Below are positions 7,003 through 58,148 of a DNA stretch of 64,000 bases, piece by piece (within the stretch, counting starts at the first letter, position 1; every line of letters starts with the position of its first letter). The notes under the pieces were generated by a model that saw only the letters and a program-made list of their open reading frames with translations, had not been told where the DNA came from and ran no database searches. This stretch comes from a virus (Duplodnaviria > Caudoviricetes). The DNA is taken from positions 1 through 64,000 of the IMG/VR virus record IMGVR_UViG_3300027845_000169. The stretch is one strand, 5' to 3'. The translations under genes and the position numbers were made by a program.

Positions 7003-7033
7003 AATTAAATAGTCGTAAGGCTAATTGATTATC

Positions 7034-8350
7034 ATGCCTGTCCGTCAAGTAGGAAAAAATTGTTACCAATGGGGTAATCAAAAGAAGTATTGCGGACCAA
7101 ATGCTAAGAAAAAAGCCATTCTTCAAGGTATTGCTATTGAAAATACTGGATGGAAGGAAGCGGAGAATTGGGGACGGGTAAAATCTCATCAACCTGTTCG
7201 TGATGCAACCCGAGGTTGCTACCCGTGTCCCGATTGTGGAAATCCGATGAGGGAAACTAATTCCGGAAGTTTTGGTTATTATTGTGCTTGTTACAAGTGT
7301 GGGGCAAATTATATTACCAAACCTTTGAAAGCAGAAGAAGAAAGGTGTTGTAAAGAATGCAATGTTGCTACGGGCCTAACTACTATTCAAACTGGAACTT
7401 ACTGTTACGAGTGCTTACCAATAAACTTAGGTGCCGAAGACGACTACACGAAAACTTATGGTGAGCAGCAAGGAACTATTCGCCGGAAACTTAAGAATAA
7501 AATTATGAAACAAGCAATCATGGGAACTAAGGCCGGTCAATGGTCCGCTCGCAAGTCCCAAGAACTCAAACGGCAGTATGAAGCAGCCTGTGAAAAGAAA
7601 AGTTTGGCTCCCTACAAAGGCAAGAAGACAAGTGCTCAAAAAGATTTGACCTCATGGACCAAACAAGATTGGACTACTAAGAGTGGAAAACCTTCCAGTA
7701 AAACAGGTGAAAGGTATTTACCTAAGAAGGCGATTAAGTCCCTCACCGACAAAGAATACAAGAAAACCAGTTCAAAGAAAAGAAAGGATAGTAAGAAAGG
7801 CAAACAATTCAGCAAACAACCCAGCGGAATTGCTAAGAAGGTAGCACAATACCGTGCCGAAATAGAATCCAAACCTTATCGTGTAGTTATCTCTCGTTCC
7901 ACCAACGATGCTAAGAAATTAATGGCTGTCTTTTATGATGGAGAGGATAAGAAAGTTAAGACTACACATTTTGGAGCAAGAGGGTCCAGCGACTATACGA
8001 AACATGGAGATAAGGAAAGAATGGAAAGATACCTTGAGCGACATGGTGGAGGATTTGAAACAAGCACCAAAGAAAATTGGAAAGACCCCATGACTGCGGG
8101 TGCACTCTCCCGATGGATTCTTTGGAATAAACCCGACCTTGGCCGAAGTTTCAATGACTATTTGCGCCGCTTCAATCTCAAAGGTGAGTTAAAAGTTTCT
8201 AAGTCTGCTGAAACTGGAATTGAAAAGTTTGGAGCAACTACGAAAGAGGACTTTCTTTCTGTAACCCAAGGGGTTACAGAAAGAAAACTACATTGGGTTC
8301 CAATCTTTTGTGGTATGGGATTGGCCTTCTTGACTTTCCGTAACCGTTAA
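7034..8350 (+). CDS. Mosaic multidomain protein (Zn ribbons, DUF5872-like and DUF5754-like domains, C-terminal TM helix)
   Basis: GQWSARKSQ...WTKQDW...GERYLPKKA and HFGARGSSDYTKH...RYLERH...LSRWILW resemble small viral domain families; TTAAATAG at 7005, 29 nt before ATG 7034. Confidence 0.7.
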   Translation: MPVRQVGKNCYQWGNQKKYCGPNAKKKAILQGIAIENTGWKEAENWGRVKSHQPVRDATRGCYPCPDCGNPMRETNSGSFGYYCACYKCGANYITKPLKAEEERCCKECNVATGLTTIQTGTYCYECLPINLGAEDDYTKTYGEQQGTIRRKLKNKIMKQAIMGTKAGQWSARKSQELKRQYEAACEKKSLAPYKGKKTSAQKDLTSWTKQDWTTKSGKPSSKTGERYLPKKAIKSLTDKEYKKTSSKKRKDSKKGKQFSKQPSGIAKKVAQYRAEIESKPYRVVISRSTNDAKKLMAVFYDGEDKKVKTTHFGARGSSDYTKHGDKERMERYLERHGGGFETSTKENWKDPMTAGALSRWILWNKPDLGRSFNDYLRRFNLKGELKVSKSAETGIEKFGATTKEDFLSVTQGVTERKLHWVPIFCGMGLAFLTFRNR

Positions 8351-23517: not shown

Positions 23518-23778
23518 ATGCTACGGTGTTATGCTTGCGGTGGATTTCCTACCGAAGATGGAGATACTGAAAAGTTTGCTCACGCCGATTGGTGCGAGAA
23601 ACAAGATTGTCCCAATTGTAAGCAAGTATTTCGTGGTTATATCGGGGCGCAGAACTGTCCGTTTTGCTTAGACCCGAAAGGTAAAAAGCGATACGAGAAC
23701 GATGCAGGGGCTTTCGTGCCGTTATTAAACAGTAAAGGAAAGTCCAATTTGGACCAAGAAACAGGATTGGTGGCATGA
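23518..23778 (+). CDS. Small Cys-rich zinc-finger protein
   Basis: CYAC, HxxxC, CPNC, CPFC; TTAAGTAG at 23489, 29 nt upstream. Confidence 0.6.
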   Translation: MLRCYACGGFPTEDGDTEKFAHADWCEKQDCPNCKQVFRGYIGAQNCPFCLDPKGKKRYENDAGAFVPLLNSKGKSNLDQETGLVA

Positions 23779-24809
23779 TGAACCCTAATAAATACGCAAA
23801 GTGGCAATTAGAATGGGCTAAGTTCACCGATGATTCAGTTAAGAGAATCAAAGAATACTCGGACGATACTCACCTTGAGCGTGAATGGATGTGTTACATC
23901 TATGAACAAGACTATGGAATTATGGTTGCTGGTAAGTCAATGCCACATCTATACCGTGATGACAGCGGAAAGGAGCAAACATTCCGTAGCAAAGAAAGAG
24001 CAGAAGAATATATGGTGGGGCACGGAATTACCGGAGCCGTTACACCAGTTTATCAAATGGGGAATGTTTCATACGGTGATGAATCCCGCATTGAAGTTAA
24101 TCCGGAATCAAAATCAACCCAAGACAACGCAGTTCGTGGACTCAAAAAAGAAAATAAAAGATGGACTATCCACGGACACCCACTCAAAGACGGCAAGATT
24201 TACACAGGTCGTCAATACTTCTCATCCACAGATATTTTGGATGAATATGTGAATACAAGAGATACTAACTCACCAGTCGTTCAATTCGTAGTATTCCCAC
24301 ACGAACAAGTTGATACAAATACAGGTCGCAAAGTTTTGCACAACAGATGCAGGGTTCTTATATTCCCCGATAGTGCAACAATTCAAAAGGCTATGAAAGA
24401 AGCGTCACCAAATACGGACCCTATGGCAATCAGCCGTGAAAACGGATTCAATAAAAACCAAGCCGATGGAAGTTTGGCAAACGAAATTGGGGCTGACTGG
24501 TTCCAATTCCAAGAAGCCTTGGGTAAAATGGGTTATATGGGGATAGTTGATATTGAAGGAAAGAAAGCCGGTGGTAAGGGAGCAGAAGGCGGTTCCACAC
24601 ATCTTGATACTGAACAAAATGAGGGTATGGGAGAATCATTTGGAGCAGAAGGACAGACAGCACTATTAATGGATGCTTTGAAAGTTGGGGCTTTAGCAGT
24701 TTTCGCTTTCGTGGCGACATCCAAACTTATGGGACACATAAAAGCCTCCGAGAGCAATGTTATAGATAACATGAATGCGGAGGAGGGTCCACATTGGTGG
24801 CATCAGTAA
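23775..24809 (+). CDS. Membrane-anchored protein with JAB/MPN-like metal motif
   Basis: ERE...IHGHP...FSSTD; C-terminal TM helix preceded by FGAE. Confidence 0.55.
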   Translation: MMNPNKYAKWQLEWAKFTDDSVKRIKEYSDDTHLEREWMCYIYEQDYGIMVAGKSMPHLYRDDSGKEQTFRSKERAEEYMVGHGITGAVTPVYQMGNVSYGDESRIEVNPESKSTQDNAVRGLKKENKRWTIHGHPLKDGKIYTGRQYFSSTDILDEYVNTRDTNSPVVQFVVFPHEQVDTNTGRKVLHNRCRVLIFPDSATIQKAMKEASPNTDPMAISRENGFNKNQADGSLANEIGADWFQFQEALGKMGYMGIVDIEGKKAGGKGAEGGSTHLDTEQNEGMGESFGAEGQTALLMDALKVGALAVFAFVATSKLMGHIKASESNVIDNMNAEEGPHWWHQ

Positions 24810-26654: not shown

Positions 26655-28346
26655 ATGGTCGCAGACATTCCGAAGGATATAACTACCTTCGCCCAAGATT
26701 GTGTTAGCGGCAAGCACACCAACAGACCCTATACTGACCGAAGCGTTTCTATTGAAGGTGCATACTATTCCCAAGTTACGGGTGAGTATGTTACTGGAAC
26801 AGGCATTTGTCTAAAGTTAGAAAGTGGACCACTTACAAAGAAAGAAGCCCGCAAGGTGGGACTAAAGTTTGCCATTTCCGATGGTAACTTCCAAGTCAAT
26901 TGTATGGCTCATAATGGAGCCACAGTTACATTACCGGCGAGTAAATCTTCGGAAGAGATGACACACATTCTTAAGACCGTTACTGATTCAATTCGTAATG
27001 GAAACAAAGTCGCATTTAGTGGTGCATTCATCACTCATAATCGTGACCTTGTATTCGTCATTGATAGTATAGCACCGTTGAAAAATATGCAACATAGTCA
27101 AATGACTGATGTGCAACTTGACGAGTTCCTTGCACTTTGTAAGGCTAACAAAACTAACCCACTTGAGTTAATGATGAGGGATGATACCCTTTGGTCGGAG
27201 TTATTCGCCCGTGATTATCTCAAGAAGGCTATCCTTCTTTATTGTCTATCGCCCCTGCGTAAGCAAGACATGATGCACATTGGTATTGTATCATCAGTCG
27301 GCGAAGGGAAAGACCACTTGATTGAAAGAGTCATTGAACCTTTAGTTCCAGTAGGTGTAGCATCCAGCGGAAAACTATGCACAATCCCCGGATTGTTTGG
27401 AGCCATGAGTGGTGAAGACATCAACTCCATTGAGTTAGGTTTGATACCTAAACACAACAATGAAAGATTAGCAGTTTCCGAGTTTCAAACTTGGGATGAT
27501 GAAGTATTCGGAGAATTGATGAATACGATGGCTAATGGATATTTCACCATGCAGAAGGGACAGGTTGATACCCGCCGTGATGCCAAAGCGAATATGTTAT
27601 TCCTTGGAAATCCCCCGCACTATTGGGATGAAGAAGCCGGACACGAAGGTAAAGATATGCTTCAAGCGTTCGGACAATACACAACCCAAATCATGAGTCG
27701 CTTAACACTCATCTTTACTCAAATGTCTTTGGCCGGAGATGATGCCAAGGATAAGATTAGAGAGAACATCATGAGGACGATGGATGGCCAGTTCTCTAAT
27801 GGAGGTTCGGAAGAAGCGGCCAAACTTTGGAGAGCATTCTTCCGTGAGTATTTGAGAAAAGTTAGCGACAGTAACCCTACAATCGGAAAGTTAGCCGGAA
27901 TCATTAACAGCACTTATGACGAAATTGAGGAAAGGCCACAATTCAAATCTGCCTTCTTACTTCGTAGTAACAATGATTACAGAAAATACCAAGAGTTCAC
28001 GAACCTAATCAAAGGTTTCGCCAAACTTTCCGGTTCTAAGAAAATAACTGTAAAACATTTGATGCTGGCAAGACAAATCTTTGAAGAAAGTCTAATCACA
28101 CTTATTGATGAGTTCCCAACTACTGCTATGAACATGGGAGTGGACTATGAATTACTCACCTGCCTTGAGTTAGCAAAAACTTCGGGACGAATGTTTGATA
28201 ATGCCAGTCAATTGAAACGGGCTGGCGACATGACACAACAACAATTAGACACGCTGGTTCATGTAGGAGCCATTGCCGAAATGTCCGGTGGAGAGTATCT
28301 CATAAATGAGGATTTTGATATGAATGGTTTGGAGGAATCACCATGA
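26655..28346 (+). CDS. mcm: Divergent MCM-like AAA+ helicase
   Basis: HIGIVSSVGEGKD (Walker A-like), TIPGLFG, IELGLIP, LAVSEF (Walker B-like), LFLGNP, IMSRL. Confidence 0.65.
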   Translation: MVADIPKDITTFAQDCVSGKHTNRPYTDRSVSIEGAYYSQVTGEYVTGTGICLKLESGPLTKKEARKVGLKFAISDGNFQVNCMAHNGATVTLPASKSSEEMTHILKTVTDSIRNGNKVAFSGAFITHNRDLVFVIDSIAPLKNMQHSQMTDVQLDEFLALCKANKTNPLELMMRDDTLWSELFARDYLKKAILLYCLSPLRKQDMMHIGIVSSVGEGKDHLIERVIEPLVPVGVASSGKLCTIPGLFGAMSGEDINSIELGLIPKHNNERLAVSEFQTWDDEVFGELMNTMANGYFTMQKGQVDTRRDAKANMLFLGNPPHYWDEEAGHEGKDMLQAFGQYTTQIMSRLTLIFTQMSLAGDDAKDKIRENIMRTMDGQFSNGGSEEAAKLWRAFFREYLRKVSDSNPTIGKLAGIINSTYDEIEERPQFKSAFLLRSNNDYRKYQEFTNLIKGFAKLSGSKKITVKHLMLARQIFEESLITLIDEFPTTAMNMGVDYELLTCLELAKTSGRMFDNASQLKRAGDMTQQQLDTLVHVGAIAEMSGGEYLINEDFDMNGLEESP

Positions 28347-31633: not shown

Positions 31634-31856
31634 AGATAATCGCAAAGCGGTTTGGAAAGCAATTCAAACTACTGGTGATTTGTTAGTCGGCAGACTGCCC
31701 GAATCTTCAAGACATCCTAATGGCCGTAATCCATACGCTCATGTCGCCTTGTGCGTCAAGAATAAGTTTGGTTGTAGTTACAAAGATATTCCCGATGAGG
31801 ATATTATGGATGTTATAGAATACCTTGAATGGCTAACTACGAAATCAGTTTCTTGA
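31626..31856 (+). CDS. Small hypothetical protein
   Basis: 76 aa; HPNGRNPYAHV...SYKDIPDE. Confidence 0.6.
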   Translation: MNEDNRKAVWKAIQTTGDLLVGRLPESSRHPNGRNPYAHVALCVKNKFGCSYKDIPDEDIMDVIEYLEWLTTKSVS

Positions 31857-33002
31857 TTTCTTTTCTTGGTCTGCTTTGATAACTGACTTCAAAAGTGCTT
31901 CCCACTCATCCGCTTTATTCTCAAGAGTTTGTTCACCAGCCCATGCTTTTCCGGCTTCCCTGTAAGGGAGGGTTAATTCGGGATTATCCATGTAAGTTTC
32001 CAAGGTGCGGGCAACTACACTAATGTAATCGTTGTGTTCCATATCAACGCCCTCGGCTCCACGCTTTGGAATGAGGACTCCTCTATCACCGATGGTGTGA
32101 GGCATAGAACCAAGTTCCGATGCAATAATAAAACAACCTGCTCTTTGGGCTTCCAAAGCACAAATGCAATAAGTTTCCACGAAGTCGGTAGGATATAGAA
32201 GGATGTCGCACTCCGCCCAAGCCTTCTCAATTTCCTCATCACTAACATATCCAAATAATTCAATGTCGTGTGGGGACTCTTCCACAAGTTGTCTTAGGGA
32301 TGGAGTTTTCCAATCAAAGAATCGGAAAGTGCGGCCCGGATAAGGAGCATTGTCATCATCTTCATACTCGGCTTGATGGCCATAGATGTGAAATGAAATC
32401 TTACCGTGCTTCTCGGGGTCTATTTTGTTGATGACTTCTAAAGCAGAACAAAGACCTCTATTCCAACCGGAAATCCAAACCATACGATTCTTGACTTTCT
32501 CAATTCCGCTGGTGTCAAGTTTAGGGGCATCTAAGCCATGACCTATTTCGTTGAAGTGGTGGTGTGGTATATTGTAATGTTGCATCATTCCATAAGTGTG
32601 GGATGGAGTGAGTGTGACGGTCTTAGAACAAAGTCCACCTTCCACCAAGTTGGCGTAAGTCTGCCTACCATCCTCATAAAAGACAGTATTCTCATAGCCT
32701 GTGAGTGGTCTTACATCATGTTGCCAAAATACAGTAGGGACTTGCTTACATTCTTCATAAAGCCAATAGTTAAGGTATCGCTGAACAATAACTACATCAA
32801 AATCAAGAGCGTTCATAGTTGGCAAAGGTCTTGACCTCCAACAGAAGATTTCAACATGGTGACCTCGCTTAACGAGTTCAACGGCCATTTGTGCTAATGA
32901 CCTCTCACTTCCCCATCCACCGCCGGGAAGTTCCCAATCTTCAGTAACTACTGTGTGTGCATCAAAGACAGGGGAATAACCAGTCCAATAAGCGATACGC
33001 AT
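31845..33002 (-). CDS. Glycosyltransferase, GT-B fold (GT4-like)
   Basis: GGGWGSE, DILLYPT..ETYCICALEAQRAG (Ex7E). Confidence 0.85.
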   Translation of the reverse strand: MRIAYWTGYSPVFDAHTVVTEDWELPGGGWGSERSLAQMAVELVKRGHHVEIFCWRSRPLPTMNALDFDVVIVQRYLNYWLYEECKQVPTVFWQHDVRPLTGYENTVFYEDGRQTYANLVEGGLCSKTVTLTPSHTYGMMQHYNIPHHHFNEIGHGLDAPKLDTSGIEKVKNRMVWISGWNRGLCSALEVINKIDPEKHGKISFHIYGHQAEYEDDDNAPYPGRTFRFFDWKTPSLRQLVEESPHDIELFGYVSDEEIEKAWAECDILLYPTDFVETYCICALEAQRAGCFIIASELGSMPHTIGDRGVLIPKRGAEGVDMEHNDYISVVARTLETYMDNPELTLPYREAGKAWAGEQTLENKADEWEALLKSVIKADQEKKSRN

Positions 33003-33069
33003 AATAGCCCATACGGTAATTTCCTACTTAATGGTTCTTTGAAATAGGTGTTTGCACCTATGCCTAATC

Positions 33070-36000
33070 ATGAGCCGTGCTGTTAAGCAACCTCAAGTTG
33101 TGGACTATGAACCCTACTATGAGATGCTTCAAAAAGATACAGACGAGGTTTATGATATTGCTAACCGGTGCAGAAGTCAAGGCTATGACCCCGAATTGAA
33201 AGTTGAGATACCTCAAGCCAATGACTTGGCAGACCGCACACAAAAACTTTTGAACTTCTTACACCCAAGAAACACGGCAGCACAAATCCGTGAATTGACG
33301 GAACTGCACGAAGGAAATAGAGAGTTAGTGGCTTTGGACCTCGCCAAGATTGTTTGTGCCGAAACTTTCCTATATGCTAAGACTTCTAAATGTCAAGTTT
33401 GTGATGGTAAAGGAACTATCAAAAAAGGATATAGAACGAGGGACTGCCACGCTTGTGAAGGTAGTGGATTGAAATTAGATTACACTAAAGATTTGATAAC
33501 TAATACTTGGGAAGAAACTTTGGAGGCAATGGAAAACTTTGCAGACATCAAGAAAACAACCAAGACAAGAATGGCACTTTGTATCTATCATGGAATCTGT
33601 GCAGGGTTAGCAGTCTTGACCGAAGGAATCCTTGTGGCTCCACTTGAAGGTGTAGTTTCATGTAGGATTATAGACAATGCCAGCGGAAGCCGAAGTCTTG
33701 CGATTAACTTTGCTGGACCAATTCGTTCTGCTGGTGGAACAGGTCAAGCGTTATCAGTTTTGATTGGAGATATTCTTCGCCGACAATTCGGATTGGAACC
33801 TCCGGAAATGACTTTTGAAGAAATTGAAAGATACAAAGAAGAAGTTATGAAATATGGTCGTGGTCTGCAATACCGTCCATCTAATCCTCAAATTGAAGTT
33901 CTATGTAATAACTGTCCGGTCTATCTTGATGGAGAGGGTGTGGGTGAAGAAGTAAGCGGACAAAGAGATTTGCCGAGAGTCCCCACGAATAAATGTCGTG
34001 AAGGTGCCCTATTGGTATTATGTGAAGGCATGGTATTGAAGGCTCCAAAGATTCTCAAATATACAGACGCACTTGGGTTTTCCGAGTGGGAATGGTTGAG
34101 AGAGTTCGCACCTAACAAAGAAGAAGAAGATGATGGGCCTAAGACCTTACAACCTATCAATAAGTATCTCGCAGACATGGTAGCGGGGCGACCAATCTTT
34201 TCACAACCAATGCAAGTAGGCGGGTTCCGACTTAGGTATGGTCGTTCCCGATTAGCAGGGTTGGCAACTACGGCAGTCCACCCATCCACTATGAAAGTTG
34301 TGGCAGGGTTTTTCATTACAGGAACTCAACTGAAATATGAACGGCCCGGAAAAGGAACGGTGGTAACTCCTTGCGATAGTATAGAAGGCCCCTATGTTCA
34401 ATTCACAGATGGGTCGGGTAAAAGGATTAGAGAACCTTCGGAATTACCGGACGGGTTACCAACTGACCCTTATTGGCCGATAGAAAAGATTTGGGATATT
34501 GGAGAATTACTCGTTCCAGTCGGTGAGTTTTTGGAAAATAATCATACTCTTGCCCCCTCACCTTATGTAAGAGAATGGCACGAACAAGTTATAGAACAGC
34601 ATACTGCGTCCTATCCTACCTCATTTATAGAAAGTTTGGAACAATCCGAGCAGTTGGGAATACCGATTGCCCCGGAATACATTGCTTACTATAATGAAGT
34701 GAGCATAGAAGATATAGAACGCTTGGCTGCGGACACAAAAGTTGATGTTCATACTCAATCTATAACTGTTGCTAAAGATTCAAGACCCACGATTTATGCG
34801 TTAGGAATTGATATAGATAAGGATGGGAAAATAGAAGGCGATAAGGGCGTGTTTTGGGGCTGGGTAGTATCACAGACCTCAAATAGTAAGGCAACGCCAC
34901 AGGACGGCTTAGAATGGGTAAATATGAGGCTTCCAGAAGGAGTTGAGGCTCTTTCAGCCGTTACACTCCGAATTGGAGCAAGAATGGGTAAGCCGGAAGG
35001 TTCTAAGCCAAGAGAAATGAAACCTGCTATTCATGGACTTTTCCCAGTTGGTTTTAAGGTGGGGACAAAAAGATTAATGCGAGATGCCGCCGCCAAGAAA
35101 GTTAAGATTGAAGTTGGCCTAAGACTGGATGAAGAAACTGGCGAACATACTTGGCAAAGGTTCCTCAAAAATCCCGATGGAAGTTTCCGTAAAACTAAGT
35201 TTGTGGAATTACAACAACAAAATGTTGGGTTCAATGATTTGTGGGAACAATCCCTCAAAGATGCAGACTTATTGGGGACTCCCGAAGTTAAGGGAGTCAA
35301 GGGAATGACGAGTGTGGAAAAGACTCCGGAATCAATGTTGAAAGGGGTTTTGCGTTACAAAAATGGAGTATCAGTATTCCGTGATGGGACACTACGATGG
35401 GACATGGTTGATATTACCATGACTCATTTCCGTCCGGCAGAAATCGGCATGACAATAAAGCAAGCACATAAGTTAGGATATACTTACGATGTTTTCGGGG
35501 ACCCCTTGACAGATGAAAACCAAACTTGTGAATTGAGGGTGCAAGATGTAGTATTGCCAACTAACTGTGCGGACAATCTTGTAAAGGCTACTAAGTTTTT
35601 AGACGATTTGTTAATTAGACAATATGGAGAAAAGGCTTACTATAATGTGGATAGTCCACAAGATTTAATAGGACACTTGGGTATGGGTATCGCACCTCAC
35701 ACAAGTGGGGCTATCGTTTGTCGTATCATCGGATTCAGTAATATAAAGGGACACTACGGACATCCATTTTTCCATGCGGCGAAACGCCGTAATTGTGATG
35801 GAGATATTGACGCATTTATGCTATTGCTTGATGGAGTTCTAAACTTTAGTAGGGCTTTCCTCGCAGGGCATAGGGGCGGTCAAATGGATGCACCATTGAT
35901 TCTCACTATGCGTATCAATCCAAGTGAAATTGACAAAGAGGCTCTCAATGTTGATACTTCTATGCAATATCCAATTACATTTTATGAAGGGACACAATCA

Positions 36001-36612
36001 TACCCCGATGCTAAAGATGCGCTCAAGTTAGGTGTTGAAACTGTTGAAACGAGATTGGGTAGTCCAGCGGAACTTAGCGGTTTTGGTTTCACACACGACA
36101 CAGAAGATTGTGGGGCCGGGCCTATTATCAATCCATATACAGAATTAGAATCCATGCGTCAAAAGACAATGGCTCAATTCGCTCTTGGAGATTTACTTCA
36201 TGCCGTTGATAATAAACAACAGGCTTCCAAACTTATTGACCGACATTTGATTAGAGATATGAGAGGTAACCTTCGGGCATTCGGACAACAAAAAGTTAGG
36301 TGTCCTAAATGTGGAGCGAAATATAGACGACCACCTATCACGGGTAAATGCAGAACTTTGTTATCGGAAAAATCGTCCGAAGAGTCGGTGACCGGAGAAC
36401 ACGAAGTTGTTTATTGTGATGGCCAAATTATTCTTACGGTGTCAAAAGGTTCTGTTAAGAAGTATGACTCATTGATGAATGACCTTGTGGATAAATATGG
36501 ATGCGATAATTACATTCAACAATTGTATTACCATGTGAGTGATTGGGTATCTCAAACATTTGACGATAACGACATGACCGAGCAAACTAAGTTAGATTTA
36601 GATTTCCTTTGA
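33070..36612 (+). CDS. polC: DNA polymerase D large subunit (DP2)
   Basis: LAVLTEGILVAPLEG, FAGPIRSAGGT, GGFRLRYGRSR, IGARMGKPE, VKGVKG, APHTS, HPFFHAAKRRNCDGDID, RGGQMDAPL, GNLRAF, CPKCGAKYRRPP; TGAAATAGGTG 30 nt before ATG 33070. Confidence 0.95.
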   Translation: MSRAVKQPQVVDYEPYYEMLQKDTDEVYDIANRCRSQGYDPELKVEIPQANDLADRTQKLLNFLHPRNTAAQIRELTELHEGNRELVALDLAKIVCAETFLYAKTSKCQVCDGKGTIKKGYRTRDCHACEGSGLKLDYTKDLITNTWEETLEAMENFADIKKTTKTRMALCIYHGICAGLAVLTEGILVAPLEGVVSCRIIDNASGSRSLAINFAGPIRSAGGTGQALSVLIGDILRRQFGLEPPEMTFEEIERYKEEVMKYGRGLQYRPSNPQIEVLCNNCPVYLDGEGVGEEVSGQRDLPRVPTNKCREGALLVLCEGMVLKAPKILKYTDALGFSEWEWLREFAPNKEEEDDGPKTLQPINKYLADMVAGRPIFSQPMQVGGFRLRYGRSRLAGLATTAVHPSTMKVVAGFFITGTQLKYERPGKGTVVTPCDSIEGPYVQFTDGSGKRIREPSELPDGLPTDPYWPIEKIWDIGELLVPVGEFLENNHTLAPSPYVREWHEQVIEQHTASYPTSFIESLEQSEQLGIPIAPEYIAYYNEVSIEDIERLAADTKVDVHTQSITVAKDSRPTIYALGIDIDKDGKIEGDKGVFWGWVVSQTSNSKATPQDGLEWVNMRLPEGVEALSAVTLRIGARMGKPEGSKPREMKPAIHGLFPVGFKVGTKRLMRDAAAKKVKIEVGLRLDEETGEHTWQRFLKNPDGSFRKTKFVELQQQNVGFNDLWEQSLKDADLLGTPEVKGVKGMTSVEKTPESMLKGVLRYKNGVSVFRDGTLRWDMVDITMTHFRPAEIGMTIKQAHKLGYTYDVFGDPLTDENQTCELRVQDVVLPTNCADNLVKATKFLDDLLIRQYGEKAYYNVDSPQDLIGHLGMGIAPHTSGAIVCRIIGFSNIKGHYGHPFFHAAKRRNCDGDIDAFMLLLDGVLNFSRAFLAGHRGGQMDAPLILTMRINPSEIDKEALNVDTSMQYPITFYEGTQSYPDAKDALKLGVETVETRLGSPAELSGFGFTHDTEDCGAGPIINPYTELESMRQKTMAQFALGDLLHAVDNKQQASKLIDRHLIRDMRGNLRAFGQQKVRCPKCGAKYRRPPITGKCRTLLSEKSSEESVTGEHEVVYCDGQIILTVSKGSVKKYDSLMNDLVDKYGCDNYIQQLYYHVSDWVSQTFDDNDMTEQTKLDLDFL

Positions 36613-36899: not shown

Positions 36900-37985
36900 T
36901 CACTCAAACCAAGGCAGATTCGCCCTTAATCTTTGCTTCTCCCCTTCTGGGACATCATGCCTTTCCAGCAAACTTTTAGTAATTTCTAAGGCTCTCTCCA
37001 TATTTTCAATTTCATAATATGCCATTGCTGCGGAATCATCAACCATCCAATTATATTGTGGTTGCATGAACAACCCCATGGTATTCCACTCTTCAACTTG
37101 TTCGTATAACTCAAGTGCCCTCCGTAACAGTTTCCAATTCCCCAAAGTTTTACCATGCAACAAAAGTTTGAAGTAAGCATCTGGTCGCTGCGTAACACTT
37201 TCAATAGCCTTGAATAAATAATCTGCATCTTTCGTCATTTCCCAAATGGCTAACCAAGATTCATAGATTTCTTCATCCCAGCCACCCATACAGGTTCGCA
37301 TTTTGTAATAACGAATTGCATCAGCCCAGTAAGGTTCCCCTGCGTCTTTGCACGATTGTGCTAAATAGAATGTATATCGTTGAAGTAAGAAAGGGTCCTT
37401 TTCCTCATTCATGGCAGCAAGCAGGGTGCTTCTATCATTCACATAAAGTTGTGCTCCTTTCGCTCGGCCTCCGCCATCGTAATGATGGTTGATACTGATT
37501 GTATTCAAGACCCCTCCTGTTTGCTCTTGACCGTCACCAGTATAGCCGATAAACTCGTGGACGACTGAACGCCAGCGATAGGAAGTTTGAGAATTGATAA
37601 GCCAAGGGAGCCAATGAGTCATGGAACCTCCCACTACTGCCAGCATATAAGAATCTATATCGGTGGAAAGTTTGGAAGTCCATTTCTCATCGGTGACTTC
37701 CAAAGTATGGTCCGCATCAAGGTAAATGTAAAAATCACAAGCGGACGAGTCGGCTTGGTCCAAACATTGATTGCGAGCATCAGCAAATCCATTCCAAGGT
37801 GAGTCAAAAACTTTGCCAACGGTATTGCCTTCAAAATAGTCCAAAACTTTCTGCTTTGTGTTGTCGGTGGTCTTTTCATCCACACCAATACAAAAGTAGT
37901 CAAGATAGGGTGCAATAGTGTCTAAGCACCGCTCAATGTTGGCCTCTTCATTATAAAGAGTCATCAATAGTCCTATCTTAACCAT
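36900..37985 (-). CDS. GT2 glycosyltransferase with TPR-like C-terminus
   Basis: YNEEANIERCL, GFADARN, YLDAD, VVHE, FYLAQS. Confidence 0.85.
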   Translation of the reverse strand: MVKIGLLMTLYNEEANIERCLDTIAPYLDYFCIGVDEKTTDNTKQKVLDYFEGNTVGKVFDSPWNGFADARNQCLDQADSSACDFYIYLDADHTLEVTDEKWTSKLSTDIDSYMLAVVGGSMTHWLPWLINSQTSYRWRSVVHEFIGYTGDGQEQTGGVLNTISINHHYDGGGRAKGAQLYVNDRSTLLAAMNEEKDPFLLQRYTFYLAQSCKDAGEPYWADAIRYYKMRTCMGGWDEEIYESWLAIWEMTKDADYLFKAIESVTQRPDAYFKLLLHGKTLGNWKLLRRALELYEQVEEWNTMGLFMQPQYNWMVDDSAAMAYYEIENMERALEITKSLLERHDVPEGEKQRLRANLPWFE

Positions 37986-38026: not shown

Positions 38027-43933
<5,907 letters not shown>

Positions 43934-50242: not shown

Positions 50243-51958
50243 TCACTCGTCACCGAGTTGGCGGAAAAGGTCGGAAATCTTGTCGCTATACTTGTATGCT
50301 GCAATCAATCCTACTACTAATCCTACACCGGCTGCCATACTGATACCGCTACCGTCTGCCTCAAAAGAGTCGGAAGGTCCAGCAGGTGGACCACCTTCGC
50401 CGGATGGGGCTTCAGTTAGTGGGTCGTAATCTAATGGGGATGGGCCGTCTTCGGCTTCATATTCATCATGTCCGCCGCAACTTGCTTCAAAACATTCTGC
50501 ACAATACAAATCTTCGGCATTACTAATGAACTCCGCTGAAAAAGCACCTGCGTCTGCATCTGCTTCGGACCAGCCAAAGTTTGCATCGGGTCCACCTTCA
50601 CCAGATGGAGATGCAGTTAGTGGGTCATAATCTAATGGATGTGATTCCATAGGGGCTGAACTTTCTTCTGCTCCGAACTCAAGGTCATAGCCCTTGCGTG
50701 TTTTCTTGGAAAGTTTCTTCTCAATTTCCCTAATTGCTCCGGATTCGGAACTCATTGCAGGGCCATACCAAGTGCGAGCACCGTAGCCAATTCTTCCATA
50801 AGCGTTAGCGGGCATAAACATACCGTTGTCTAACTTTAGAACTGTGAATAAATGATATTTGTTAGTGGAAACTCCTTCTTTCATAGTGTAGTATTTAGGG
50901 CCGAAAGCAATAAAGTTACCACGAGCAAGAGTGTAAGGTGTTCCGTTGATAAGTGCGGCCATGCCCTTGTTCACATCTCCGGGTCCGGATTGATAAACAG
51001 CCATTGCCTCAAAGTGGTCCGATGGTGCGGATTCATCCAAATGAGGTCCCGGTGTTTCGCTTAGTGGGTCATAATCATGTGCGGTTGCATCTTCAGCGTG
51101 AAGTGGTGTATAGTTAGCGTCAGCAGTTTGGCTACCGATAACATGACCGGAACCTGCTGGGAAAGTTGAAGGGTCAGCCACAACTGGCTCACCTTCTTCG
51201 GCGTAGTATTGTGTAACGCCGTGTCCGAGTGGAGCCTCAACGACTACACTTTCAACACCGTCAAAGTCTTCTAAGGAGGCGAGGTCGCCACCAAATGCTT
51301 CTGCGGAAAAAGAGGCTGCTGGTCCGCCGTCATCCATTGGAGTTTCAGCAGTTGGGTCATAGGCCATAGGCTCGGAGCCTTGTGGAGAGTCTGCGGTTGC
51401 ACTAACTGATGATTGCTCAACAACGGAGGGAGCGATTGTTTCACCGCTTTCCTCGGTGTAAGCGTTATCAACTTCGGGTTGTTCAACATCTGCTTGTTCT
51501 TCAATATCGGTTACTTCGGTTGGAGTTTCAACTCCGTCACCTTCGGCACCCATCTTAGCGAGTTTGGCCATCTTTTTCTTACCGTATTTCTTCATACCGA
51601 TAACTGCGGCAGTAGCGTCACCAATCTTTTCTGCTTCTTCCGGTGACTTACCCTTTTTCTCGTATTCTTCGGCAATATCGTCCGAAAGGTTATCAAATCT
51701 TTTTCCGGAACCAAGTTTTGGTTCTGCATCAAGAACGATGGTGTTATTTTTGGTTGCTGCGGTTACTCCGGCAGACTTCATAGAATCGTGAACGGCCTTG
51801 CTACACATAGATGTGCAATTGTATTTCTTGCCACTATCCATGTAGTGACCCTTAATTTGATATTTGCTCCCTTTGCTGGTAACCATGTGGGTTACTCCAT
51901 CAACGGTTGCATCAACCTTTCTCTTAAGTCCAACGCAATACATATTGTGTGTTGCCAT
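50243..51958 (-). CDS. Mosaic acidic protein with WGR-like domain, YDP repeats and C-terminal TM anchor
   Basis: NKYH...AYGRIG...KKTRKGY (WGR-like); four YDP[LT] repeats; many xAE delimiters. Confidence 0.7.
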   Translation of the reverse strand: MATHNMYCVGLKRKVDATVDGVTHMVTSKGSKYQIKGHYMDSGKKYNCTSMCSKAVHDSMKSAGVTAATKNNTIVLDAEPKLGSGKRFDNLSDDIAEEYEKKGKSPEEAEKIGDATAAVIGMKKYGKKKMAKLAKMGAEGDGVETPTEVTDIEEQADVEQPEVDNAYTEESGETIAPSVVEQSSVSATADSPQGSEPMAYDPTAETPMDDGGPAASFSAEAFGGDLASLEDFDGVESVVVEAPLGHGVTQYYAEEGEPVVADPSTFPAGSGHVIGSQTADANYTPLHAEDATAHDYDPLSETPGPHLDESAPSDHFEAMAVYQSGPGDVNKGMAALINGTPYTLARGNFIAFGPKYYTMKEGVSTNKYHLFTVLKLDNGMFMPANAYGRIGYGARTWYGPAMSSESGAIREIEKKLSKKTRKGYDLEFGAEESSAPMESHPLDYDPLTASPSGEGGPDANFGWSEADADAGAFSAEFISNAEDLYCAECFEASCGGHDEYEAEDGPSPLDYDPLTEAPSGEGGPPAGPSDSFEADGSGISMAAGVGLVVGLIAAYKYSDKISDLFRQLGDE

Positions 51959-52631: not shown

Positions 52632-52994
52632 TCAATTAAGCCCAACTGTTCTTCCGTTAAAGTTTTGGCCAAAGGATACGACAGTTGCACGATTTACATA
52701 CGCTGCCATTGCTGGATTGTTCACATTACCGTTCATACCCGTAGCATCACTAACTCCATAGTTAGTCATGTTTTGACCTACTGCTTGTCCTCCCAACAAT
52801 TGAACATCCGTCATCACTTGTGATACGGACCCTTCATTTCTTTTTATGGCAGAAGTTGGCGGAGCATCAGTCGCTATGAAGTCAGCACGATACTCGGCAG
52901 ACTTAGAAGCCATGAATGAATCTAACCAACCAAGTTTCCAAGCGGCAACGCCGACTACTACGCCGACAACAACGGAACTAAGTGCAATCTTCAT
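52632..52994 (-). CDS. N-terminally anchored small protein
   Basis: N-terminal TM helix followed by KSAE and YRAD; promoter 29 nt upstream. Confidence 0.6.
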   Translation of the reverse strand: MKIALSSVVVGVVVGVAAWKLGWLDSFMASKSAEYRADFIATDAPPTSAIKRNEGSVSQVMTDVQLLGGQAVGQNMTNYGVSDATGMNGNVNNPAMAAYVNRATVVSFGQNFNGRTVGLN

Positions 52995-53151: not shown

Positions 53152-55215
53152 TCACTCCTTTTTATCATCAATCATTTGAGCGGAAATATATCCAATCGCT
53201 AATCCACCTATCAAACCAAGTGGCTTGGCCCAGCGAGGAACTTGGTCTTCAGCCTCCATGTCCTCGTCCTTGGGTTTATCATAGGTCATCCTGTTTTCTC
53301 TCATCCATTGGCCTTCGCACCCATCTCCACAGAATGCGTAATCCCCTTCATCACCCCACTTATTGTATATGGTGATTTCTTCCATTCCCTGCGGGTAATC
53401 ATTACTTCCTATACCACAGTTTTGGCAATGGAGTTCTCCCTCATCTTCGGCACCGAAAGAACCACTAACTTCAATCTCAACATCTTTTCCATCTTCATCA
53501 GTAGTATAGTGTGTATGGCTTATCCATGAATCAGTATTACCATCGTTAAAAGCATCTTCCATAACTCCTTTCATTTCTTCATTTACATAACCATCGTCAA
53601 TCAAGTCGTCATGCTCATGTGGATGAGGTTCAGTTTCCCAATGGTAATCTTTAACAACTTTCTTGGTAATTACTATTTCATCAGTTCCTTCAGCACCATA
53701 AGTAATACAAGGGTCTTTTCCACACCCACAATTCTTTTTACCTTCAGCACCATACTTTTTCATGTGGCTGGCTTGTTCTTGTTTAGCCCAATCCATGAAA
53801 GACAAAGTTTGGTGTTCGGCACCATAGGCTTCTTTTGGAGTCACAAATGTTCCATCTTTTTTATAATGGTCTAAGCCATCCATAGGGTAATCATATTTCA
53901 AAACGGAAAGGGCATCTAAATACTCCATATCTCCCATCTCATGGGTTTCTTCCCATCCTTCAATGTAGTCTGCTACTGCTTTTGTTTGTGCTTCTTCGGA
54001 TAATTCTTTGAAAGAGTATATTTTTATCTCACCTTCTGCATCCATGTTATTCCGTCCAATAACTTCCAATATGTATTCCCATTCTTCCGTCATTGCATCG
54101 TCATGATTTACATTGATAGTAGCACATTCTTTGACTTTCTTTAGCACTTCTCGTAAATGCTTGACTTCTGCTTCCGAACTTTCGCCTTCTGCACTCTTCT
54201 TCTTGAAACAGCCACAATCAGCGTCAAAGTATTCGGAATCGTAAAGAGCCATTTCCGCTCGCAAGGTATCGGACATTAGCCCACTACCTTCACAGTATGA
54301 ACAATCTTCATCACCTTCGGCACCCATTCCATCACAAGAGAAACAAGGTTCATCATAGCCTTCTGCTTCCATCATATCGTCTAACCATTCATCACTTTCA
54401 CATAGAGGACAAGCCAAAACGAAATCATATCCGCCTCCACCACTTCCGTCTGCGTCAATGAATATCAAATCTTCGTAAGTTCCATCCCATGCACAATCAA
54501 GACAAGAGATTTCATCCTCTAATTCATCATCCATAGCGGCTACCATTTCAGCCTTTTTAATATCAGTTGGATGTTTGAAAGAATGTTTGGGCTTACAATA
54601 GTCAGCAGCAGTCTTTCGGGGACCTCTTGGCTTAGTGGACTTTTTGTATTCAAAAGTTTGGGGAATATGACCTGCTAATTCATTCTTGTCGGAGTCAAAC
54701 TTAGGGCAACGAATACCATGATTCTTATAGGGTATAACTTTGAAATCGCCGTCATCACCTACTGCCTCTAACTCTCCAATGACTCCACTACAAAGAACTG
54801 GGTCCCCATTATCTCGGTGAACGAGGTAAGAGCCAATAACGCTGGCCTTGGTAGGGTCATCAACTTTAGGAGTAACGATAAAACGGTGAGTTTCTCCACG
54901 GTTCTTAACCATCATGTGCATTCCGGGTTGAGATGCAGCATCCCAAACAGTCCGAGCAATAAAGAATGGAGATTTATTATCATAGAAACGGCAATAACTT
55001 CCTTCCTTACGCTTGCCAATATAATTCTGCTTATCATTATAATGCTTGGCTGGATAGTGAGCCTCTAACTTAAACTTACCATTAGAAAGTCGGCGATTAA
55101 TACTAATCTTTTCCGGAAGTGCCTTGAAGTCAATAGGTGTTCCAAAGACTTGAGTTATACCCTTTGGATTAACGACTCCTTTGACCTTTGGACGACTTTG
55201 TTTCTTTGTGGCCAT
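53152..55215 (-). CDS. Mosaic polyprotein-like protein with Cys modules and C-terminal TM anchor
   Basis: Basic N-terminal domain then ~10 short modules (CLDC/CPLC, CFSC/CSYC, CGC, CQNC) separated by xAE; TTAAATAG 29 nt upstream. Confidence 0.7.
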   Translation of the reverse strand: MATKKQSRPKVKGVVNPKGITQVFGTPIDFKALPEKISINRRLSNGKFKLEAHYPAKHYNDKQNYIGKRKEGSYCRFYDNKSPFFIARTVWDAASQPGMHMMVKNRGETHRFIVTPKVDDPTKASVIGSYLVHRDNGDPVLCSGVIGELEAVGDDGDFKVIPYKNHGIRCPKFDSDKNELAGHIPQTFEYKKSTKPRGPRKTAADYCKPKHSFKHPTDIKKAEMVAAMDDELEDEISCLDCAWDGTYEDLIFIDADGSGGGGYDFVLACPLCESDEWLDDMMEAEGYDEPCFSCDGMGAEGDEDCSYCEGSGLMSDTLRAEMALYDSEYFDADCGCFKKKSAEGESSEAEVKHLREVLKKVKECATINVNHDDAMTEEWEYILEVIGRNNMDAEGEIKIYSFKELSEEAQTKAVADYIEGWEETHEMGDMEYLDALSVLKYDYPMDGLDHYKKDGTFVTPKEAYGAEHQTLSFMDWAKQEQASHMKKYGAEGKKNCGCGKDPCITYGAEGTDEIVITKKVVKDYHWETEPHPHEHDDLIDDGYVNEEMKGVMEDAFNDGNTDSWISHTHYTTDEDGKDVEIEVSGSFGAEDEGELHCQNCGIGSNDYPQGMEEITIYNKWGDEGDYAFCGDGCEGQWMRENRMTYDKPKDEDMEAEDQVPRWAKPLGLIGGLAIGYISAQMIDDKKE

Positions 55216-55699: not shown

Positions 55700-57100
55700 T
55701 CATCCGAATGAAGCATCGTGTGATACTGCCACCACATCATCTTCGTCATCCTCAAACATTAAGTCACGCTTGGCCAAGTCTTTCTTAGCACGGTCACGGT
55801 GGGCCAACATAAGTTTGGTTGCCGACTCTAAATGTTTTTGCGATACTTTGGCCTTTTTTGCATCATATTGAGAATCTTCTAAGGCCATCACAAACGCATT
55901 CCTAACTATTTCTTCTATGTAGGCTCCCGACAATCCTTTAGTTTGTTTGACGATAGATTTCATATCAACGATTCCTTTCACAGTTAATGACTTGAGGTAT
56001 TTCTCAAAGATTCTTCCACGAAGTTTCTCATCGGGATAACCTAATTCCATGCGAGCGTCAAATCTTCCGGGTCTGTCTGTCAAAGCCCAATCAAGTTTGT
56101 CAGCATGATTAGTAGTAGCAAGGGTAACTACACCGGAGTTAGACTCCACTCCGGAGAGTGCGTTGAGGAACTCACCCAATAGTGGATGGTCGCCATCGTA
56201 ACGACTTACTCCACCGAGAGTATCTAAGTCCTCAAAGATTAGGAGGGTTGGGGCTAACTTTTGAGCCAGTTTGTAAGCATCTCCAATATCTCCGACATCT
56301 TCAATACTTTCACGAGTCACTACCATTGTAGTAACATCAACATCATTCATCAAAACATTGCAGGTCAAAGTTTTCCCAGTTCCCGGCGGTCCAGTAATCA
56401 AAACTCCTCTTGATAGTTTGAGGGAATGACCTTTGAATACATCCATGTTGTTCAAGAAGTCCACTACATTCCGCTGCAAGGTCTGTCGGTGTTCCTTAGA
56501 GATAACTACATCATCCCAACCATTTTCGGGAGATTCAGTAATGAACTTGTAATTGGAATAAAACTTCTCCCCTTTGAGGAGGCAATTATCATAAAAGTAA
56601 GCCATAAAGTTTTGCCAAAGATTCTTACCAACCTTACATTTATGGTCAAACATTATGCGTAAATCAAGGTTCAGTCCATCGTATGGAAGGAATTGAATGG
56701 CTACGGCAGCATCGGAGGTTTTGTGCTTAAGATGTGCAATAAGTTTGAGTGGGATTTTATACACAGTCCCTTTCAAATTGAAATCGTGATAGATAGGACT
56801 AACAGAAGAATTACCGTGTCCGTAATTGACTACATCACAAACTTCATAGTTTTCTCTAATATATCGCCAAAAGCATTCCATAGTAACGGCGAACTCTTTT
56901 TCACTAACTTCTTGAACTTTAGTTTCAATCAATTCACCATCAATCCAAGCCTTAGCATCTGCGTCTGCCTTGTCTATATGAGGGAGTGTATTCCTCAATG
57001 TTTCAAGACCCATTAGGAAATCTGTCATTGGTTCTGTATCAAGGCTAACATCTCCCATCGGAGTGTTCATTACGAGTGTCGGGGGCATTGGTTGGCTCAT
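55700..57100 (-). CDS. AAA+ ATPase (classic clade, CDC48/FtsH/PAN-like)
   Basis: GVLITGPPGTGKT, LIFEDLD, ATTNH, DRPGRFD, GLSGA; promoter 29 nt before ATG 57100. Confidence 0.9.
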   Translation of the reverse strand: MSQPMPPTLVMNTPMGDVSLDTEPMTDFLMGLETLRNTLPHIDKADADAKAWIDGELIETKVQEVSEKEFAVTMECFWRYIRENYEVCDVVNYGHGNSSVSPIYHDFNLKGTVYKIPLKLIAHLKHKTSDAAVAIQFLPYDGLNLDLRIMFDHKCKVGKNLWQNFMAYFYDNCLLKGEKFYSNYKFITESPENGWDDVVISKEHRQTLQRNVVDFLNNMDVFKGHSLKLSRGVLITGPPGTGKTLTCNVLMNDVDVTTMVVTRESIEDVGDIGDAYKLAQKLAPTLLIFEDLDTLGGVSRYDGDHPLLGEFLNALSGVESNSGVVTLATTNHADKLDWALTDRPGRFDARMELGYPDEKLRGRIFEKYLKSLTVKGIVDMKSIVKQTKGLSGAYIEEIVRNAFVMALEDSQYDAKKAKVSQKHLESATKLMLAHRDRAKKDLAKRDLMFEDDEDDVVAVSHDASFG

Positions 57101-57125
57101 GTTCTTGAACTTGGCAAACACCTAC

Positions 57126-58148
57126 TTAATGGGGTGCAAACCAAGGCTTAGAAATGTCGGAGTCTAAATCATCAAGCCCAGTAAGGACTTGTGGGCGATT
57201 AACACCACCTGTGACGGCGACTAACCAATCGGCATACCCTTCTTTCAATTCCATATTAGAGTGTTCAATAAGAAACTCTTCGGAAGGTCTTGGATGGCGG
57301 GCCATACAAATGTCACCTGCCTCCTTAAACTTAGCCCATATACCGCCTTCGGCATACTTAGCGGCCGTCTGTGGGCCAGCGTTAGTTGTGTTGTCTTCAT
57401 GGAGTCTATGATAGCCACCTACGGCATCACATTGCACGACAACACCTAATGGAGAGAAAGGGGTAAGGCTATCCTTAGAATCGCCATGCTGAACAATAAC
57501 TCTCATCCAGCAATCGGTATCTTCCACAATAGCCAAACGGTCATCAAATCCGCTAATGGCTTCTAACCTATCTCGGCGAACGACAACTTGTGAAGTAATG
57601 GGTGGCATTCCCATTAATCGGAAATATGTATGAGTCGGTTGGATTCTCCACGCCTCGGGATAATAACCAATAGTGGTTTCCCAAGAAGTAACCTCACCGC
57701 CTTTCAAACTTTCCATTGGAATGTGTGTATCTGCGGCAGTATAAATTACCAAAGGGTCGGATAACTCATCGTCACCCCATGTAGGCGTGTCTTTAGCATC
57801 CAAAACTTCTTGAATGAAAGCAAGATGGTCGGCATACCAATAATCATCAGCGTCCAAAAAGGCAACCCAAGGTGCATCACCATGAGCGATACCTTGATTT
57901 CTTGCCCCGCCTACACCTTCAACATCGGAACCTTGTTTCAAATAAACGAATCTCGGGTCCAAATTAACATAGTGCATACAGACATTAGTAATCCCATCTG
58001 CTAATTCATCTTCGGCTGGTGTGCCATCAACAATGATGACTCGCCAATCTTGAATCTTTTGAGCGATTACGCTATCTAAACATTCAGTTATCCATTTAGG
58101 TTTAACTTTGTAAATAGGAATTATGACATCGTATGTAACGGAACTCAT
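57126..58148 (-). CDS. GT2 glycosyltransferase
   Basis: VIIPIY, IIVDG, GVGGARNQG, AFLDADD, EDTDCW. Confidence 0.9.
   Translation of the reverse strand: MSSVTYDVIIPIYKVKPKWITECLDSVIAQKIQDWRVIIVDGTPAEDELADGITNVCMHYVNLDPRFVYLKQGSDVEGVGGARNQGIAHGDAPWVAFLDADDYWYADHLAFIQEVLDAKDTPTWGDDELSDPLVIYTAADTHIPMESLKGGEVTSWETTIGYYPEAWRIQPTHTYFRLMGMPPITSQVVVRRDRLEAISGFDDRLAIVEDTDCWMRVIVQHGDSKDSLTPFSPLGVVVQCDAVGGYHRLHEDNTTNAGPQTAAKYAEGGIWAKFKEAGDICMARHPRPSEEFLIEHSNMELKEGYADWLVAVTGGVNRPQVLTGLDDLDSDISKPWFAPH

Follow-up and report, generated by a model that had tools for sequence, protein, structure and literature searches.

The prohead proteases of T4 (gp21), phiKZ, 201phi2-1 and SPN3US (gp245) cut many head-internal and ejection proteins C-terminal to Glu at a short motif, and the giant-phage and T4 rules A-X-E, S/A/G-X-E and L/I-X-E fix P3 and leave P2 free (PMC5694885). 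For the polyvalent proteins of Iyer et al. 2017, which hold many modules per polypeptide, co-delivery and proteolytic separation were proposed (PMC5512222). Processing of SSV1 VP1 is a different case: it leaves Glu as the new N-terminus (PMC5748691). The literature on archaeal-virus polyprotein or maturation systems, searched by title and abstract, held nothing pertinent. Here we describe a gene, P0001, that lies at 53152-55215 in a window consisting of the first 64 kb of a 150,353-bp IMG/VR record of an uncultivated marine virus (label G000; CheckV completeness 53%), and whose product carries the short sequence Ala-Glu/Asp, usually preceded by a hydrophobic residue and any residue, again and again along its length. 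We call this sequence the tag and the gene a carrier. With a probability of roughly 0.55, we infer that P0001 is a membrane-anchored cargo polyprotein which is cut after the Glu or Asp of each tag.

The carrier gene is one frame on the minus strand, open over 687 codons (table 11). Its parts are given below in the order of the protein; the 70 sources in which they were sought are G000 itself plus 69 loci of a metagenome scan.

53152..55215, minus strand: whole carrier gene P0001, 687 amino acids (aa) plus stop; 46 homologs.
54547..55215, minus strand: residues 1-223, N-domain, conserved, basic and beta-rich, with KKAE at its end.
54361..54546, minus strand: residues 224-285, zinc ribbon 1 (CLDC...CPLC), with MEAE at its end; constant in the close clade.
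54253..54360, minus strand: residues 286-321, DnaJ-type zinc finger (two CxxCxGxG), with LRAE at its end; constant in the close clade.
54187..54252, minus strand: residues 322-343, short constant pieces with FDAD and KSAE ends, the last conserved stretch before the variable string.
54034..54186, minus strand: residues 344-394, 7-aa spacer (SEAE) and 44-aa helical module (MDAE); variable, 2 of 70 sources.
53815..54033, minus strand: residues 395-467, 73-aa module with YGAE end; variable, 5 of 70 sources.
53743..53814, minus strand: residues 468-491, 24-aa module with YGAE end; in 36 of 47 proteins, its position in the string differing.
53689..53742, minus strand: residues 492-509, 18-aa Cys-rich module (CGCG..C) with YGAE end; also in a second, unrelated carrier family.
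53446..53688, minus strand: residues 510-590, 81-aa module with FGAE end; variable, 5 of 70 sources.
53248..53445, minus strand: residues 591-656, 66-aa zinc-ribbon module with MEAE end; variable, 2 of 70 sources.
53155..53247, minus strand: residues 657-687, C-terminal hydrophobic tail (core 665-682, then DDKKE), a putative tail anchor.

The sequence-only reading had reported a string of motifs along this protein, and every listed element is present in the translation in the order stated: CLDC at 238, CPLC at 269, MEAE at 282-285, CFSC at 291, CSYC at 305 and LRAE at 318-321; then FDAD (330-333), KSAE (340-343), SEAE (347-350) and MDAE (391-394); then YGAE three times (464-467, 488-491 and 506-509), with CGC at 496-498; and finally FGAE (587-590), CQNC (597) and MEAE (653-656). 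The segments between them had been put at roughly 10-85 aa and measure 7-81 aa. They had also been called mutually unrelated, and this agrees with an internal BLASTP of 11 segments, in which the sole match below E 0.1 was between the two adjacent zinc ribbons (E 0.005); other short inter-segment matches include the shared YGAE tag. In one of these ribbons, CFSCDGMG and CSYCEGSG (291-312) form the paired CxxCxGxG which we take to be the consensus of the DnaJ-type zinc finger; the NCBIfam DnaJ model gave E 6.2e-5 over 257-317, far under its cut-off, and the anti-TRAP model was also sub-threshold (E 0.0056). Pfam returned 0 families for P0001 at E<=0.01, and PHROGs one family of unknown function (E 3.7e-4). 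DNA and protein searches of a phage collection with P0001 gave no match, and a related-locus search of viral contigs, by single protein or by homolog alignment, gave no relative. The full-length AlphaFold2 (AF2) model (mean pLDDT 38.1) is too poor to judge domain independence. At the C-terminus, the stretch 665-682 has a Kyte-Doolittle mean of 1.45, the maximum of P0001; with a single hydrophobic segment near the C-terminus and a basic, polar N-terminus, the protein fits the tail-anchored pattern, and membrane insertion is predicted on these features.

The tag is far more frequent in P0001 than expected. For [FYMLIVW]-x-A-[ED] the count is 11 and the expectation 2.54; 0 of 300 shuffles reached 11, and the resulting z-score (5.7) is the highest of all 146 open reading frames (ORFs) in the record that have 100 aa or more. 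AE by itself is found 12 times, where the composition predicts 4.6. Across the record, 14 ORFs hold 76 motifs (18.7 expected), while the remaining 132 hold 120 (108.5 expected). It is thus in a set of carrier proteins that the excess is concentrated. In 69 related carriers, which are not independent of one another, 432 motifs were counted against 135 expected. The grammar of the site was derived from 280 non-identical junction contexts; as these were chosen as A[ED], Ala at P2 and Glu/Asp at P1 (the residue before the presumed cut) are preset. Y/F/M/L/V, and also K, stand at P4, G/D/R/E/K at P3 and G/T/D/S/A at P1'; of the 280 P1 residues, 226 are Glu and 54 Asp. At the three constant junctions (Ala 284, 320 and 332) the Ala is invariant in 42 sequences and P1 toggles between Glu and Asp. 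Tags often stand in tandem, e.g. AE-SFGAE and AEAE.

The P0001 gene has 16 A[ED] positions, which between them employ every one of the four Ala codons; as the Ala codon varies at junctions, the tag is selected in the protein. Among 16 carriers, the microhomology at the junctions of 26 unique DNA indels is 2 nt in the median, averages 3.8 nt (0.77 nt under random placement) and does not exceed 11 nt; the subset with 7-11 nt is merely the tag's own coding sequence. A DNA recombination signal as the sole cause of the pattern was ruled out by the varied Ala codons and the median of 2 nt. Judged from the codons, then, the tag is maintained at the protein level, and tag codons may still aid illegitimate recombination.

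A word-indexed search led to 46 homologs of 398-1145 aa, with high identity over only about half of the query. The N-terminal ~340 residues are common to 46/46 of them and the C-terminal hydrophobic tail to 39, and aligning 42 homologs showed conservation of residues 1-340 and of the tail. Between residue ~340 and the tail, homologs differ by whole modules. We collected 148 unique clean indels with well-aligned flanks among the 46 homologs; since these are related sequences, the counts describe a pattern and not independent events. Both ends lie exactly at A[ED] in 53 of the 148 (random placement 0.9, maximum 5) and within 3 residues of A[ED] in 107 (random 6.9); in 147 this distance is kept by one end or both. 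What offset is left comes mostly from the likeness of adjacent tags, and the true exceptions among the boundaries show AK, AQ or SL in place of an expected AE.

Pairs of homologs whose N-domains are at least 97% identical had an identical set of variable modules in 1 of 47 cases, with a mean Jaccard index of 0.48 (module families were obtained by cutting at every A[ED] and then clustering by single linkage, a procedure that over-segments). In P0001/P0005, P0003/P0006 and P0024/P0026 the N-domains are 100% identical and the module content is different; the 66-aa zinc-ribbon module, for example, is missing from P0005. Module order differs as well: 2-9-10-4 in P0005 is 4-2-9-10 in P0007, and 13-4 and 16-17 have their counterparts in 4-13 and 17-16. 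Eight proteins have a VWA-like module at the N-terminus and three have it inside; where it is fused upstream, its YAAE end directly precedes the residue that follows Met-Ala in P0001, so that the fusion point is the gene start. The label 'VWA-like' rests on a motif which we take to be of DxSGS type; Pfam was sub-threshold on a paralog in G000 (VWA_2, E 0.0032) and gave no VWA support on P0019 and P0027. Relatives also carry WGR and 38-40-aa metallothionein-like modules; among eight long relatives scanned with Pfam only WGR was found, in one. A HMMER scan of 1.84 billion representatives with the N-domain led to 31 proteins, and distant homologs (~30% identity) show the same tag-punctuated strings with different cargo.

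The proposal that the segments are independently acquired peptides is thus strongly supported: gain, loss and reordering of modules take place at the tag, and, as shown below, modules are also found in other carrier genes. Their release by processing, proposed along with it, is presumptive. Homologs that are colinear over their full length and without conserved motifs had been named as the outcome that would speak against it; the homologs are not colinear, and they exchange modules at the tag. The modular description applies to the variable middle and not to residues 224-343 (two zinc ribbons and the FDAD/CGCFK piece), which are constant within the close clade, are found in 19/70 sources and are not shuffled.

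The sequence-only reading had suggested a search for segments in other orders or as stand-alone genes; other orders were found among homologs, and other genes with the modules among different carriers. The 18-aa Cys-rich module, the most widely shared between carriers, has 12 tblastn matches outside the carrier gene; six were examined and all belong to a second carrier family with another N-domain, a C-terminal transmembrane (TM) segment and a location about 3-5 kb downstream in the distant clade. The same module occurs in five short, otherwise unrelated proteins. Other tag-punctuated proteins of the record (coordinates with the prefix G000 are those of the whole record) are the following.

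50243..51958, minus strand: second tag-punctuated carrier, 571 aa, with a WGR domain and a C-terminal TM segment; motif 11 times against 2.7 expected.
G000 114199-116811 (L004:10199-12811), minus strand: N-terminally anchored carrier, 870 aa, with PolX, zinc ribbons and a C-terminal acidic tail.
G000 120286-122106: tag-rich, N-terminally anchored protein that shares three modules with P0001 homologs.
7025-8350, plus strand: tag-punctuated protein with DUF5754 (E 1.3e-18) and DUF5872 (26.8 bits, just under the cut-off of 27.5), both Pfam families of unknown function.

The three modules in G000 120286-122106 are from P0001 homologs, none of them from P0001. In G000 114199-116811 the PolX palm and thumb (Pfam E 3e-17 and 2.6e-8) sit between RAE/AE and KRAE, and in several carriers the tag separates a terminal TM anchor from the cargo. 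In these sequences the tag grammar is seen to be genome-wide and to frame autonomous domains.

These observations suggest the following scheme. The N-terminal beta-rich domain and the putative C-terminal tail anchor frame a cassette of unrelated mini-proteins joined head to tail (zinc ribbons, the 18-aa Cys-rich peptide and helical modules in P0001; VWA-like, WGR and metallothionein-like modules in relatives), each closing with hydrophobic-x-Ala-Glu/Asp. The tail anchor would insert the protein into a membrane used by the virus, plausibly via the virus's own Get3/TRC40 ATPase; an endopeptidase would then cut after the Glu or Asp of the tag, so that the modules are freed from the anchor and from each other. 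As tag and anchor are generic, any small ORF gaining a tag could be plugged in, which would explain the fast turnover of cargo between near-identical viruses. The freed modules may be packaged in the virion and may function there as cargo. The Get3/TRC40 family is the factor that delivers tail-anchored proteins to membranes, and the record holds a member of it.

G000 98250-99443 (L003:14250-15443), minus strand: Get3/TRC40/ArsA-family ATPase (TIGR00345 GET3_arsA_TRC40, 188 bits against a cut-off of 135).

This protein also matches Pfam ArsA_ATPase (E 2e-59), and in the record at least 11 ORFs have a TM segment at their end. It is a tentative extension, and one that may well go too far, that the whole genome follows an 'anchor plus cut-here' grammar in which the viral Get3 inserts into the viral membrane any small protein that has gained the tag and joined a tail- or signal-anchored carrier, and a dedicated protease, with a specificity for which we found no description, frees it, possibly with a Cdc48-like unfoldase, as a plug-and-play delivery of a fast-evolving set of mini-proteins.

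A serious though unlikely rival to cleavage is that P0001 remains an uncleaved membrane-anchored chain of the beads-on-a-string type, with x-Ala-Glu as a linker, a helix-capping motif or a recombination scar. Several observations weigh against the cargo polyprotein and most of them suit the uncleaved chain: (i) the cut is presumed from sequence; the 48 G000 ORFs that were scanned gave no Pfam peptidase over the cut-off, and a six-frame search of the 53%-complete record for Peptidase_C48, Trypsin_2, S78 and S77 found nothing (S77 and S78 at E<=1), (ii) MGAE at 297-300 falls inside one zinc module, between its CxxCxGxG halves, and the AD at 415-416 (VAD) lies within the 73-aa module, which always travels whole, (iii) some module boundaries in relatives have AK, AQ or SL in place of AE, so that the tag is not obligatory, (iv) microhomology in the tag codons (up to 11 nt, the mean being about five times that of random placement) could contribute to exchange at tags, (v) the low-confidence full-length model puts helices ending at or crossing some tags, with one helix running through LRAE|MA, and (vi) the tail has only a moderate hydrophobicity (1.45), and proteins of the distant clade lack an anchor and have a WGR-like domain at the end. 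As to the internal motif-like sites, either folding protects them or the tag alone is insufficient. A linker or a scar does not, however, readily account for a grammar that is position-specific over at least four positions, P4 and P1' among them, and so resembles protease sites, nor for a tag that, in unrelated proteins, stands between TM anchor and cargo and on either side of PolX and WGR. In addition, the Ala codon varies, microhomology is low in the median, tandem tags have no obvious structural role, and fusion points coincide with gene starts. We therefore continue to favour the cleaved, membrane-anchored cargo polyprotein.

Two further alternatives accept that the tags are recognised by an enzyme. 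In the first, which we regard as improbable, P0001 would process itself in cis or trans, the N-domain being an endopeptidase whose triad, His53-Asp92-Cys142, follows the H-D-C order known from small viral chymotrypsin-like proteases; for that class, cleavage after Glu is typical. The N-domain is the sole universally conserved part of the family, and H53, D92, C142 and C170 (about 54706-55059 in the window) are near-invariant across 28 sequences, down to 24% identity. Yet in P0088 and P0092 all four are replaced together (K, V, A, V) and many AE tags are kept. The AF2 model of the N-domain (pLDDT 78.4) has ~8 strands, too few for a two-barrel protease. Weak Foldseek rows do include viral polyprotein or protease regions and trypsin-like proteins, but nothing convincing was found in the PDB (best E 0.059) or BFVD (best E 0.075); VIA-align against 48,161 chains reached a best Z of 3.9 with only generic beta-barrels on top, and the ESM Atlas gave no usable match. 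The joint loss of the four residues with tags kept, together with the missing protease fold match, leads us to favour a putative metal or disulfide site. In the second, which is similarly improbable, the string would be mainly an array of precursors, like those of ribosomally synthesized and post-translationally modified peptides, that yield small bioactive or metal-binding peptides; a maturation enzyme would recognise the tags, as in multi-core cyanobactin or pro-hormone precursors. Several modules are indeed very small and Cys-rich (the widely shared 18-aa CGCG..C and the 38-40-aa metallothionein-like modules of relatives), but most are 44-81 aa or larger, other carriers hold bona fide PolX, WGR and VWA-like domains, no modification enzyme was noticed beside the carrier gene, and the idea is in any case a special case of cleavage rather than a separate mechanism.

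An artefact of gene calling or genetic code was ruled out by the frame, open in table 11, and by full-length homologs in many assemblies; no motif of a 2A-like skipping site or an intein was seen in the P0001 translation.

If the cargo polyprotein is cut, the best candidate for its protease is the following gene.

G000 81440-82633 (L002:17440-18633), minus strand: HExxH protein, 397 aa.

Its HExxHxxxHPG motif, and with it the HExxH, is invariant in 11/11 aligned homologs. Atlas feature matches fall in the 'DUF2201_N putative metallopeptidase' set in 22 of 30 cases; Pfam gave sub-threshold matches to Peptidase_M78 in 5/11 members and to M13 in 3/11, and a PDB profile search with the alignment gave nothing. 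A VWA-like gene is located two genes away, and two homologs of the HExxH protein are on contigs whose lengths, 65,889 and 94,396 bp, equal those of contigs with carrier homologs, which is only a hint of co-occurrence. By sequence it is only a candidate for the tag protease. A JAMM-like protease candidate at 23775-24809 had no support from Pfam, PHROGs, NCBIfam or PDB sequence search. The possibility of a protease fused to the ATPase that neighbours the carrier gene was dropped because the N-terminal region of that ATPase, ~190 aa of unknown kind, is without conserved His, Cys or Ser.

The carrier gene lies in a block that is kept in relatives down to ~27% N-domain identity. Two of its neighbours are these.

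55700..57121, minus strand: Cdc48/p97/VAT-like single-AAA ATPase; best PDB sequence match E 2.7e-47.
52632..52994, minus strand: 120-aa protein with an N-terminal TM segment followed by KSAE; conserved neighbour in 40 sources.

A Cdc48/p97-like AAA ATPase is present within 10 kb of the carrier in 66/70 sources, and may take part in handling the carrier. Also near the carrier in the 70 sources are a GT2 glycosyltransferase (52), beta-rich paralogs (50) and two small TM proteins (40 and 35). Three glycosyltransferase genes, two GT2 and one GT1/GT4, are in or near the virion-gene block of the window (57126-58148, 36900-37985 and 31845-33002, all minus strand); the GT2 gene at 57126-58148, or a paralog of the same cluster, is the one conserved near the carrier (52/70). 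Two genes give an indication of the replication machinery.

33052-36612, plus strand: PolD large subunit (Pfam).
26655-28346, plus strand: MCM-like P-loop protein (Pfam).

All three DP2 domains are found in the former (Pfam E down to 2.6e-120), and by these matches the virus has archaeal-type replication genes. The record also has a HerA/FtsK-like P-loop protein with a C-terminal TM segment, for which all matches were sub-threshold. Elsewhere, a 1968-aa collagen-repeat protein (Pfam Collagen E 2.3e-223) is encoded at 38027-43933 (minus strand), and because of this gene the GC content is 0.56-0.59 at 38-44 kb (~0.43 elsewhere). Minus-strand genes outside the window encode a UDP-glucose/GDP-mannose dehydrogenase fused to a cytidylyltransferase-like domain (G000 91407-92618) and a ribonucleotide reductase large subunit with a B12-type insertion domain (G000 116853-118847).

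If the tags are cut, a large and widespread lineage of marine viruses whose replication genes are of archaeal type would have them as its processing code. Since a sequence is enough to locate the sites, mature products could be predicted by the dozen and sought in metaproteomes. The cassette differs between viruses with an identical flanking domain and is therefore a probable front line of virus-host conflict; many mini-proteins not yet characterised come from this region as well. It would be unusual for a virus to carry its own membrane-targeting factor, as the Get3 homolog alongside so many tail-anchored proteins would mean here, and tag plus anchor could be a simple design for co-delivering several small proteins.

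Comparison with known systems shows likeness in each case and differences in each. Prohead-protease substrates (PMC5694885) also have extra sites inside propeptides and diverse cargo behind a generic targeting and cutting signal; there, P3 is Ala/Ser/Gly/Leu/Ile, whereas in the P0001 family Ala is at P2 and a hydrophobic residue at P4. The P0001 tag fails the prohead rule (L/I/S/A/G at P3), P3 being G/D/R/E/K. Moreover, P0001 would be membrane-anchored, its cargo is concatenated and shuffled where that of the phages is encoded by separate genes, and the virus has archaeal-type replication genes. Polyvalent proteins resemble P0001 in joining unrelated modules in one mobile-element polypeptide with highly variable content; in the extracts of PMC5512222, however, they are large, with enzymatic effector domains and an embedded zincin-like MPTase, and are described for phages and conjugative elements of bacteria, 'archaeal' occurring once in the main text. 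P0001 has no Pfam domain and no embedded peptidase; instead it has modules of 7-81 aa, an explicit repeated tag and a tail anchor.

With tail-anchored proteins of the Get3/TRC40/ArsA pathway P0001 shares a single C-terminal hydrophobic segment ~5 residues from the end, and a Get3-family member is encoded in the record; unlike them, its segment is only moderately hydrophobic (1.45). We know of no described virus-encoded Get3 that serves a virion cargo system, a point on which no literature search was made. African swine fever virus (ASFV) pp220 and pp62 are likewise polyproteins docked at a viral membrane and cut at a short repeated motif in maturation. Retroviral Gag is a membrane-docked polyprotein too, and adenovirus sites, (M/I/L)XGG-X, have a hydrophobic P4 as in the tag. 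The ASFV, retroviral and adenovirus systems have fixed colinear products, a known viral cysteine or aspartic protease and Gly at P1/P2, whereas in P0001 the cargo set changes between near-identical genomes and P1 is acidic. In its general logic, P0001 works like prohead cargo, polyvalent proteins and membrane-docked polyproteins; the defining features of these systems beyond that logic are not found in it. An 'anchor plus cut-here' system would be the archaeal-virus counterpart of Gag or pp220 combined with the internal-protein system of T4.

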